The notes beneath the pieces were generated by a model. It was not told where the DNA came from, did no database searches, and saw only the letters and a program-made list of their open reading frames with translations. A DNA stretch of 64,000 nt from Escherichia coli (GTDB lineage Bacteria > Pseudomonadota > Gammaproteobacteria > Enterobacterales > Enterobacteriaceae), in NCBI RefSeq assembly GCF_041886205.1, contig NZ_CP169029.1, one strand, 5' to 3'. The translations under genes and the position numbers were made by a program. Positions 38,356-40,012 of the stretch are shown one piece after another. The stretch's first letter is position 1; each line of letters begins with the position of its first letter.

Positions 38356-38560
38356 GAACACATGTAGAGTGCCTCTTACTGACCGTAAGGTCAAGGAGAA
38401 GAGAGCAATGAAGCAGCATAAGGCGATGATTGTCGCCCTGATCGTCATCTGTATCACCGCCGTAGTGGCGGCGCTGGTAACGAGAAAAGACCTCTGTGAG
38501 GTTCACATCCGAACTGGCCAGACGGAGGTTGCTGTTTTCACGGCTTACGAATCCGAGTAA
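38351..38560 (+). CDS. mokC: MokC, overlapping regulatory reading frame for hokC translation
   Basis: Reading frame starting MLNTCRVPLTDRKVKEKRA that overlaps and ends with hokC. Confidence 0.7.
   Translation: MLNTCRVPLTDRKVKEKRAMKQHKAMIVALIVICITAVVAALVTRKDLCEVHIRTGQTEVAVFTAYESE
38408..38560 (+). CDS. hokC: HokC (Gef), type I toxin, small membrane peptide
   Basis: 50-aa MKQHKAMIVALIVICITAVVAALVTRKDLCEVHIRTGQTEVAVFTAYESE matches the Hok family. Confidence 0.88.
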   Translation: MKQHKAMIVALIVICITAVVAALVTRKDLCEVHIRTGQTEVAVFTAYESE

Positions 38561-38582
38561 GAGCAACGGCGGGGAGTGATCC

Positions 38583-39921
38583 CATAAGCGCTAACTTAAG
38601 GGTTGTGGTATTACGCCTGATATGATTTAACGTGCCGATGAATTACTCTCACGATAACTGGTCAGCAATTCTGGCCCATATTGGTAAGCCCGAAGAACTG
38701 GATACTTCGGCACGTAATGCCGGGGCTCTAACCCGCCGCCGCGAAATTCGTGATGCTGCAACTCTGCTACGTCTGGGGCTGGCTTACGGCCCCGGGGGGA
38801 TGTCATTACGTGAAGTCACTGCATGGGCTCAGCTCCATGACGTTGCAACATTATCTGACGTGGCTCTCCTGAAGCGGCTGCGGAATGCCGCCGACTGGTT
38901 TGGCATACTTGCCGCACAAACACTTGCTGTACGCGCCGCAGTTACGGGTTGTACAAGCGGAAAGAGATTGCGTCTTGTCGATGGAACAGCAATCAGTGCG
39001 CCCGGGGGCGGCAGCGCTGAATGGCGACTACATATGGGATATGATCCTCATACCTGTCAGTTCACTGATTTTGAGCTAACCGACAGCAGAGACGCTGAAC
39101 GGCTGGACCGATTTGCGCAAACGGCAGACGAGATACGCATTGCTGACCGGGGATTCGGTTCGCGTCCCGAATGTATCCGCTCACTTGCTTTTGGAGAAGC
39201 TGATTATATCGTCCGGGTTCACTGGCGAGGATTGCGCTGGTTAACTGCAGAAGGAATGCGCTTTGACATGATGGGTTTTCTGCGCGGGCTGGATTGCGGT
39301 AAGAACGGTGAAACCACTGTAATGATAGGCAATTCAGGTAATAAAAAAGCCGGAGCTCCCTTTCCGGCACGTCTCATTGCCGTATCACTTCCTCCCGAAA
39401 AAGCATTAATCAGTAAAACCCGACTGCTCAGCGAGAATCGTCGAAAAGGACGAGTAGTTCAGGCGGAAACGCTGGAAGCAGCGGGCCATGTGCTATTGCT
39501 AACATCATTACCGGAAGATGAATATTCAGCAGAGCAAGTGGCTGATTGTTACCGTCTGCGATGGCAAATTGAACTGGCTTTTAAGCGGCTCAAAAGTTTG
39601 CTGCACCTGGATGCTTTGCGTGCAAAGGAACCTGAACTCGCGAAAGCGTGGATATTTGCTAATCTACTCGCCGCATTTTTAATTGACGACATAATCCAGC
39701 CATCGCTGGATTTCCCCCCCAGAAGTGCCGGATCCGAAAAGAAGAACTAACTCGTTGTGGAGAATAACAAAAATGGTCATCTGGAGCTTACAGGTGGCCA
39801 TTCGTGGGACAGTATCCCTGACAGCCTACAAAACGCAATTGAAGAACGCGAGGCATCGTCTTAACGAGGCACCGAGGCGTCGCATTCTTCAGATGGTTCA
39901 ACCCTTAAGTTAGCGCTTATG
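38583..39921. mobile_element. Insertion sequence IS186 (IS4 family), complete copy
   Basis: About 1.34 kb element bounded by inverted repeats CATAAGCGCTAACTTAAGGGTTG (38583-38605) and CAACCCTTAAGTTAGCGCTTATG (39899-39921); flanked by GC-rich near-identical direct repeats GGGGAGTGATCC / GGAGTGATCCCC; contains the transposase gene. Confidence 0.9.
38632..39750 (+). CDS. insL: IS186 transposase InsL
   Basis: 372-aa ORF (GTG start) matching remembered IS186/IS4-family transposase sequence (MPMNYSHDNWSAILAHIGKPEELD). Confidence 0.9.
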   Translation: MPMNYSHDNWSAILAHIGKPEELDTSARNAGALTRRREIRDAATLLRLGLAYGPGGMSLREVTAWAQLHDVATLSDVALLKRLRNAADWFGILAAQTLAVRAAVTGCTSGKRLRLVDGTAISAPGGGSAEWRLHMGYDPHTCQFTDFELTDSRDAERLDRFAQTADEIRIADRGFGSRPECIRSLAFGEADYIVRVHWRGLRWLTAEGMRFDMMGFLRGLDCGKNGETTVMIGNSGNKKAGAPFPARLIAVSLPPEKALISKTRLLSENRRKGRVVQAETLEAAGHVLLLTSLPEDEYSAEQVADCYRLRWQIELAFKRLKSLLHLDALRAKEPELAKAWIFANLLAAFLIDDIIQPSLDFPPRSAGSEKKN

Positions 39922-40012
39922 GGAGTGATCCCCGCCACTTTTCAGGTGCTCGCATATCTTCAACGCACCCTAATTTTACCCAAGCCTGCCCACGGGCAGG
40001 CTTTTGGGGAGG

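Follow-up and report, generated by a model that had tools for sequence, protein, structure and literature searches.

The closest described systems are the hok/sok locus of plasmid R1, the IS186 copies beside hokC (gef) and hokE in Escherichia coli K-12, and the IS186 hot spot at lon. In hok systems, the paired ends of the mRNA give a full-length transcript that stays stable and inert up to the moment of 3' processing, and in the R1 hok model correct folding needs the fold-back inhibition (fbi) element to be made soon after the 5' domain. The target consensus of IS186 was reportedly given as GGGG(N6/7)CCCC by SaiSree et al. in 2001, and Pedersen and Gerdes are said to have placed IS186A downstream of hokC (gef) in K-12 MG1655 in 1999. 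PMC3562002, citing Pedersen & Gerdes 1999 and Poulsen 1989, contains the K-12 precedent for IS insertion at hok on which the original prediction for this locus had drawn; according to the same paper, which summarises earlier work, the K-12 gef mRNA ends in IS186 and is still transcribed and sof-regulated. IS186 also strikes one site in the lon promoter repeatedly and in either orientation (PMC3045373) and favours GC-rich sequence, including beside CRISPR-adjacent hok/sok (PMC3903273), while in a population survey hok/sok homologues were among the hot spots for mobile elements in both E. coli and K. pneumoniae (bioRxiv 10.1101/527788). Neither the K-12 case nor the tendency of hok loci to attract insertions is new to the published record.

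The stretch of E. coli DNA analysed here (the window, 64,000 nucleotides) contains a hokC locus with an IS186 copy downstream of the toxin gene, and the following features were identified:

38258-38269, plus strand: tac element GGGTGCTTGAGG, the predicted 5' end of the hokC mRNA (position 1 of the Rfam RF01794 match)
38258-38410, plus strand: hokC mRNA leader, overlapping sokC (Rfam RF01794, the 'sok'/CssrC model)
38301-38359, minus strand: sokC antisense RNA gene (homology to K-12 b4413)
38351-38560, plus strand: mokC frame, an in-frame upstream extension of hokC (ORF present)
38408-38560, plus strand: hokC (gef) toxin gene, 50 aa (Pfam PF01848, HOK_GEF, 1.8e-24, 85.5 bits against a cut-off of 22)
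38568-38582, plus strand: left arm of the 3'-UTR hairpin interrupted by IS186 (GGCGGGGA...), with the left copy of the target duplication
38583-39921, plus strand: complete IS186, 1,339 bp (exact terminal inverted repeat matches)
38583-38605 and 39899-39921: left and right inverted repeats of IS186, perfect over 23 bp
38638-39750, plus strand (the same strand as hokC): IS186 transposase insL, 370 aa (ORF; PF01609, DDE_Tnp_1, 1.6e-26)
39922-39936, plus strand: right arm of the split hairpin (...TCCCCGCC), including the right copy of the duplication at 39922-39931
39958-39970, plus strand: fbi element CTTCAACGCACCC, 1.4 kb downstream of the hokC ORF
39982-40007, no strand assigned: native hokC terminator, a GC hairpin and T-run (perfect 10-nt inverted repeat; terminal hairpin in the predicted fold)

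The locus has a Hok/Gef toxin ORF (PF01848), a leader with a sok-complementary region and a mok frame, and tac and fbi elements which are able to pair in the predicted fold, all as in a hok-type system; it departs from that type in that tac, ORF, fbi and terminator are not contiguous on a transcript of ~400 nt, as 1,339 bp of IS sequence lie between the ORF and fbi. The leader matched the full RF01794 model with 122.4 bits (gathering score 59, E=8e-29). The position of sokC was obtained by carrying over the MG1655 annotation coordinates through an ungapped blastn alignment (98.8% identity), and the mokC start (38351) was taken from the K-12 annotation of b0018. A simple scan for promoter-like sites near sokC and hokC was uninformative, with none passing. 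In common with R1 hok/sok, hokC has a Hok/Gef toxin, an upstream mok, an antisense Sok, end complementarity and a GC hairpin past the stop codon; unlike R1 hok/sok it lies on the chromosome, an IS has displaced its 3' regulatory end, and its intact form reportedly gives no post-segregational killing.

The IS186 copy which had been predicted downstream of hokC was confirmed as complete, with exact ends over 1,339 bp and an intact 370-aa transposase, insL, as its single DDE transposase ORF; PGAP also calls insL in a locus identical to that of the window. The distance from the hokC stop codon, estimated beforehand at about 22 bp, is exactly 22 nt (38561-38582), and the 23-bp terminal inverted repeats proposed are perfect: the left end is an exact 23-mer, CATAAGCGCTAACTTAAGGGTTG, from position 38583, and its exact reverse complement terminates at 39921. 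The interval originally assigned to the feature, 38408-39933, corresponds to hokC, IS186 and the right repeat. The GC-rich flanking direct repeats were likewise found, although they had been described as near-identical and are in fact identical (GGGAGTGATCCC at 38572-38583 and 39921-39932, with a spacing of 1,349 nt). There is an ambiguity of 1-2 nt in the boundary between IS186 and the duplication: with the terminal C and G given to IS186, the target duplication is 10 bp, GGAGTGATCC, at 38573-38582 and 39922-39931, and if they are counted with the repeat it is 12 nt. The element thus shows the length of ~1.34 kb, the 23-bp inverted repeats, the single DDE ORF and the GC-rich duplication at GGGG(N6/7)CCCC by which IS186 is recognised, and the case is a textbook one, with IS186 inserted at a hot spot already known, beside a known toxin gene.

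Comparison with an uninterrupted hokC locus, the check that had been proposed, was carried out; it delineated fbi at 39958-39970 and fixed the duplication at 10 bp. In-silico removal of IS186 and one copy of the repeat gave a sequence that matches the locus of strain CFSAN061769, which has no insertion, at 100% identity over 867 nt and, as the reconstructed empty site is identical to a natural empty allele, clean transposition is proven. The sequence of the empty site is GGGGAGTGATCCCC. The window does not differ from the uninterrupted allele in the toxin ORF, in mokC or in the sokC region, and the HokC protein accession WP_000809168.1 is common to the occupied genomes and several empty ones.

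Upstream genes and a blastn comparison with MG1655, in which IS186 was inverted, led us to reject the identification of the window as K-12. The best match to the window was strain LZSFT34, the best matches being wild strains, and the window strain has a three-gene island between nhaA and hokC, unlike K-12. The IS186A copy at hokC in K-12 MG1655 (b0016/insL1) shares with the window the IS sequence (0 differences in 1,339 nt after orientation correction), the insertion 22 nt past the stop codon and the duplication GGAGTGATCC. It differs in pointing the other way with respect to hokC and dnaJ, with the flanks aligning in one direction and IS186 in the other, and the flank haplotypes differ at 18 of 2,270 sites; given the opposite orientation and the different flanks, the window insertion is therefore independent of the K-12 event. 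insL opposes hokC in both K-12 and BL21(DE3), while in the window, as in ~900 complete genomes, the two genes are co-directional. The hokC transcript consequently meets the transposase-sense end of the IS in the window, and in K-12 the antisense end with its terminator-like hairpin. As K-12 and BL21 represent one of two arrangements, conclusions on gef/hokC expression in these laboratory strains are not automatically transferable to strains such as that of the window.

The distribution of the insertion was assessed in 5,426 complete E. coli genomes. IS186 was present at hokC in the window orientation in 898 genomes and in the K-12 orientation in 670 (a count inflated by K-12 and B laboratory derivatives), so that ~29% of genomes were occupied in either orientation, and the site was empty in 3,816 (70%). 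In some strains the hokC leader also contained a second IS, either IS150 or ISEc52. For detailed comparison 21 loci were fetched and aligned with the window, giving 16 occupied loci when the window is counted. The insertion nucleotide and the duplication were the same in all 16, and the IS186 copies were identical over 1,339 nt in 15, with a single SNP in the remaining copy, while the flanks of the sampled loci differed at up to 77 of 2,270 sites (3.4%). Occupied, inverted and empty states were mixed within the same flank haplotypes: 0 flank differences separated LZSFT34 (occupied) from CFSAN061769 (empty), 1 separated PSS-13 (K-12 orientation) from C3728 (empty), 2 separated strain 53 from O104:H4 (empty) and 1 separated K-12 from KN13-4 (opposite orientation), and the K-12 flank haplotype was also found empty in JP538 (100% over 1,300 nt). 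SNPs lying 10 and 21 nt away from the point of insertion tracked the local haplotype and not occupancy, and recombinational spread of a single allele is thereby ruled out.

The two orientations were compared for the length and position of the duplication, in search of a mark of separate events, and no difference was observed; as the junctions are identical in both orientations, independence was judged from the flank haplotypes and from the divergence of IS and flanks. The combination of identical IS copies, divergent flanks and haplotypes shared across states therefore points to repeated recent hits on a hot spot. On the simplest reading of these alignments one hot spot would have been struck independently many times in the recent past, in both orientations; the sample would imply at least 7 insertions, or approximately 10 events when the orientations found in a haplotype are counted apart. 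The identical junctions and 10-bp duplication are also what would be seen if a single ancient insertion, shared with K-12, had later undergone inversions mediated by the inverted repeats and precise excisions, and the inverted repeats and the palindromic target together form a 38-nt inverted repeat (89%) which could support rare inversion. Such a history is nevertheless very improbable: the IS copies are identical while the flanks diverge by up to 3.4%, at least two haplotypes include empty alleles with 100% identity to the occupied flanks, one and the same local haplotype can show all three states, the site is empty in 70% of genomes, and IS186 is documented to strike one site de novo in either orientation (PMC3045373).

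No other GGGG-N6/7-CCCC sequence was found in the 64-kb window, where ~0.6 would be expected by chance for each spacing. IS186 was found at the equivalent position, 21-22 nt past the stop codon, in four other hok loci, namely hokE of K-12, the hok gene of plasmid pTB211, a prophage hok and a hok gene between cysH and iap. As in the window, the IS (IS186B in the case of hokE) lies inside the GGGG...CCCC hairpin, and in hokE the transposase is again co-directional with the toxin gene; these paralogues differ from hokC in their chromosomal, plasmid or prophage setting and in their hairpin loops (AGTAAT, AGAGAT). The duplication in pTB211 hok is GGAGAGATCC. The lon hot spot (PMC3045373, PMC4618355) resembles hokC in its GC-rich palindromic target and in its recurrent exact-site insertions in either orientation, but at lon a promoter is disrupted with a clear selectable phenotype, whereas at hokC the insertion splits a hairpin in the mRNA 3' UTR.

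Selection for silencing, in which an IS beside a hok toxin is favoured because it disables a costly module and so reaches high frequency, is an idea that Durrant et al. raise with regard to the E. coli and K. pneumoniae hot spots at hok/sok (bioRxiv 10.1101/527788), and the second IS in the hokC leader of some strains would fit it. This explanation was considered distinctly unlikely, as the target sequence alone accounts for the position of the insertion, with the same junction in 16 copies and the corresponding one in four paralogous loci, the toxin ORF was struck by an IS in none of the sampled loci, and the site is empty in 70% of genomes.

The position of the insertion relative to the regulatory elements of the hokC mRNA was examined by reconstructing the uninterrupted transcript, joining 38258-38583 to 39933-40008 to give an mRNA of 402 nt. 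This RNA was predicted to fold far better than shuffled controls (z=-7.1), with nt 1-12 (GGGUGCUUGAGG) paired to nt 352-364 (CUUCAACGCACCC; 39958-39970 in the window) at a probability of 0.94-1.0; this is the tac-fbi pairing of the mRNA ends described for plasmid R1 hok in papers from the Gerdes laboratory. The hairpin which is split by IS186, GGCGGGGA-GUGA-UCCCCGCC (nt 311-330), is the conserved GC hairpin GGGG-N6-CCCC and lies 26 nt upstream of fbi. The native terminator is shared tail-to-tail with dnaJ (40013-41143, minus strand). The original prediction had taken the insertion to fall in the 3' region that forms the fold-back element; in the reconstructed mRNA fbi is not hit, and by the narrow refuting condition set beforehand the insertion lies outside the fold-back element. 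The associated claim that fold-back is compromised holds in part, in that the fbi sequence itself is untouched while fbi and the terminator have been separated from the hokC ORF by 1,349 bp.

Conservation of these structures was assessed by aligning hokC and 44 distinct hok mRNAs of prophages, taken from IMG/VR (45 in total), and counting pairs. The tac element was invariant across the 45 mRNAs, and the tac-fbi helix was paired in 100% of cells, with 9 pairs invariant and 3 showing one-sided changes from G-C to G-U only, while the predicted bulged base of fbi varied freely between C, T and A. No compensatory double changes were found in this helix among the 45 mRNAs, and the absence of covariation means that the alignment lends the pairing conservation-based support and not proof. 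The split hairpin did show real compensatory changes, one pair being AU in 16, GU in 15 and GC in 14 of the sequences, and prophage hok copies include a GAGGG...CCCTC form of it.

The fate of the hokC transcript and the functional consequence of the insertion are inferred from these structures. The reading to which we assign a probability of about 0.75 is that IS186, an IS4-family element with a DDE transposase, transposed into its preferred GGGG-N6-CCCC palindrome with duplication of 10 bp, that the same target forms a conserved hairpin in the 3' UTR of mRNAs of the hok family, and that the delayed-activation pathway of hokC was probably lost as a result while transcription was kept. The event in the window would be one of many recent independent hits, here with insL in the direction of hokC. 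Transcripts of hokC which end inside IS186 would lack fbi and could not form the 5'-3' end-pairing; when such chimeric, IS-terminated RNAs were folded, their 5' end was instead predicted to find a partner in nt 52-58 (AAGCCCC; p 0.7-1.0), the kind of local alternative that is expected for hok mRNAs without fbi. By analogy with R1 hok, the pool of stable, inert full-length mRNA and the trigger provided by 3' processing would both be removed, and the delayed-activation pathway would likely be lost with transcription and SokC control retained, the toxin ORF, mokC and sokC being intact. In accessibility, the start regions of mokC and hokC were predicted to differ hardly at all between intact and chimeric RNAs, and for this reason the chimeric mRNA is not claimed to be translationally active. 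The original prediction that the insertion probably inactivates hokC is thus overstated: hokC, mokC and sokC are identical to the empty allele, the 3' regulatory end has been uncoupled, and the evidence supports describing hokC as uncoupled from its 3' regulatory end, 'inactivates' being too strong.

It is also possible, though rather unlikely, that IS186 is a neutral passenger at hokC, the hairpin serving merely as a target match, with read-through reaching fbi and the terminator or with chromosomal hokC being inert regardless. A simple scan revealed no convincing intrinsic terminator, and no strong one was predicted, inside IS186 on the hokC strand; a strong terminator-like hairpin was located at 39368-39349 on the other IS strand, the one which is relevant in K-12. 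In the window orientation transcription may therefore, on these predictions, read through to the native fbi, and in the resulting 1,751-nt RNA the tac-fbi pairing was still predicted at equilibrium (p ~1), so that some fold-back inhibition might persist. That pairing is nevertheless made doubtful by kinetics and by the translation of insL, since on the R1 hok model an additional 1.3 kb with a translated ORF would render end-pairing kinetically unlikely, and the K-12 gef mRNA is reported to end inside the IS (PMC3562002), albeit in the other orientation. An occupancy of 29% in both orientations fits target-driven insertion, and the HokC protein and leader were unchanged in 16 of 16 occupied loci, but with insertions of such recent date, whether decay has set in tells nothing. 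In a recent preprint (bioRxiv 10.1101/2025.08.07.668861, citing Pedersen & Gerdes) the uninterrupted, wild-type chromosomal hokC of ECOR24 is reported not to cause post-segregational killing; there was therefore perhaps little function to lose.

A further proposal gives the outcome a dependence on orientation: with insL co-directional with hokC, a hokC-insL co-transcript driven by the hokC promoter would extend to the native fbi and terminator under partial fold-back control, IS186 would borrow a constitutive host promoter for its transposase, and the conserved hok 3' hairpin would be a dedicated landing pad, with hok loci acting as reservoirs for the spread of IS186. We regard this as improbable.

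Loss of delayed activation with transcription kept is retained as the preferred reading, and the main practical value of the result lies in annotation: neither the toxin ORF nor fbi is hit, and it is a conserved 3'-UTR hairpin matching the IS186 target that is split. The relation of the insertion to fbi, its inversion with respect to K-12 and B, and the direct evidence of repeated independent insertion are useful, incremental refinements. The hokC locus offers a convenient natural system for IS186 hot-spot usage and could show whether displacement of fbi by 1.3 kb abolishes end-pairing of a hok mRNA. IS186 at hokC is a recurrent and ordinary feature. Such copies are annotated routinely by PGAP, in hundreds of genomes.

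Insertion of IS186 was also observed at four further hok paralogs, in each case 21-22 nt past the stop codon and within the homologous GC hairpin; these were hokE of K-12 (L022), and the hok copies of plasmid pTB211 (L023), of a prophage contig (L088) and of strain MB20 at cysH-iap (L024). The IS186 copy of MB20 had no matching duplication at its ends and was adjoined by a CRISPR array, a combination in keeping with recombination between IS186 copies, as proposed in PMC3903273.

The hairpin itself was compared in an alignment of 45 hok mRNAs, consisting of hokC and 44 distinct prophage-borne copies from IMG/VR (alignment A1). 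In many of the prophage copies GGCGGGG...CCCCGCC was found to be replaced by GGCGAGGG...CCCTCGCC (columns 335-356), a variant which keeps the hairpin while losing the GGGG/CCCC motif. IS186 occupied 2 of 80 loci (L026 and L088), both of which open the hairpin with GGCGGGG, as read from the left arm only, the right arm lying beyond the IS.

In strain PF9285 (L025) the hokC site was occupied by a decayed IS186, which has lost internal sequence and carries a frameshift in its transposase gene, indicating that some insertions at the hokC site are not recent. A strong terminator-like hairpin followed by a T-run was predicted within the IS186 of the window, antisense to the transposase (39349-39368, minus strand); this would face hokC transcripts in the orientation present in K-12 and BL21, and not in that of the window.

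An additional IS was observed at the hokC locus of certain strains. In JSMCR1 (L004) and M217 (L006) IS150 lies approximately 75 nt ahead of hokC, at the point corresponding to 38332/38333 of the window, where it interrupts the hokC leader and the sokC gene and separates the ORF from the promoter and from tac, the predicted mRNA 5' end, for which pairing with fbi is predicted. From annotation, IS150 is likewise present in the matched region of USML2 and 23AR1101, and ISEc52 in that of LHM10-1 and CP52E.

With regard to annotation, the 50-amino-acid hokC ORF carries the PGAP label 'mokC' in all genomes examined, and the match to the Rfam 'sok' model (38258-38410) lies on the hok-sense strand and corresponds to the hokC leader, the antisense sokC strand being unmatched.

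The interval between nhaA and hokC contains an island of three genes, of which one codes for an IS1/IS1595 zinc-domain protein, another for a sulfatase and the third for an OmpK-like outer membrane protein:
34148-37796, three-gene island
37035-37796, minus strand, OmpK-like outer membrane protein gene

On locus comparison the island was carried by LZSFT34 (the best match to the window), CFSAN061761, CUVET21 and P4, and was absent from K-12, HS and many further strains.

Five other Rfam matches in the window scored above the gathering score:
14789-14841, minus strand, ES003
41144-41221, minus strand, tpke11 (dnaK-dnaJ spacer)
49676-49718, plus strand, ES036
55000-55119, minus strand, thr operon leader
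63738-63815, plus strand, naRNA4

All five are ordinary content for this part of the E. coli genome.
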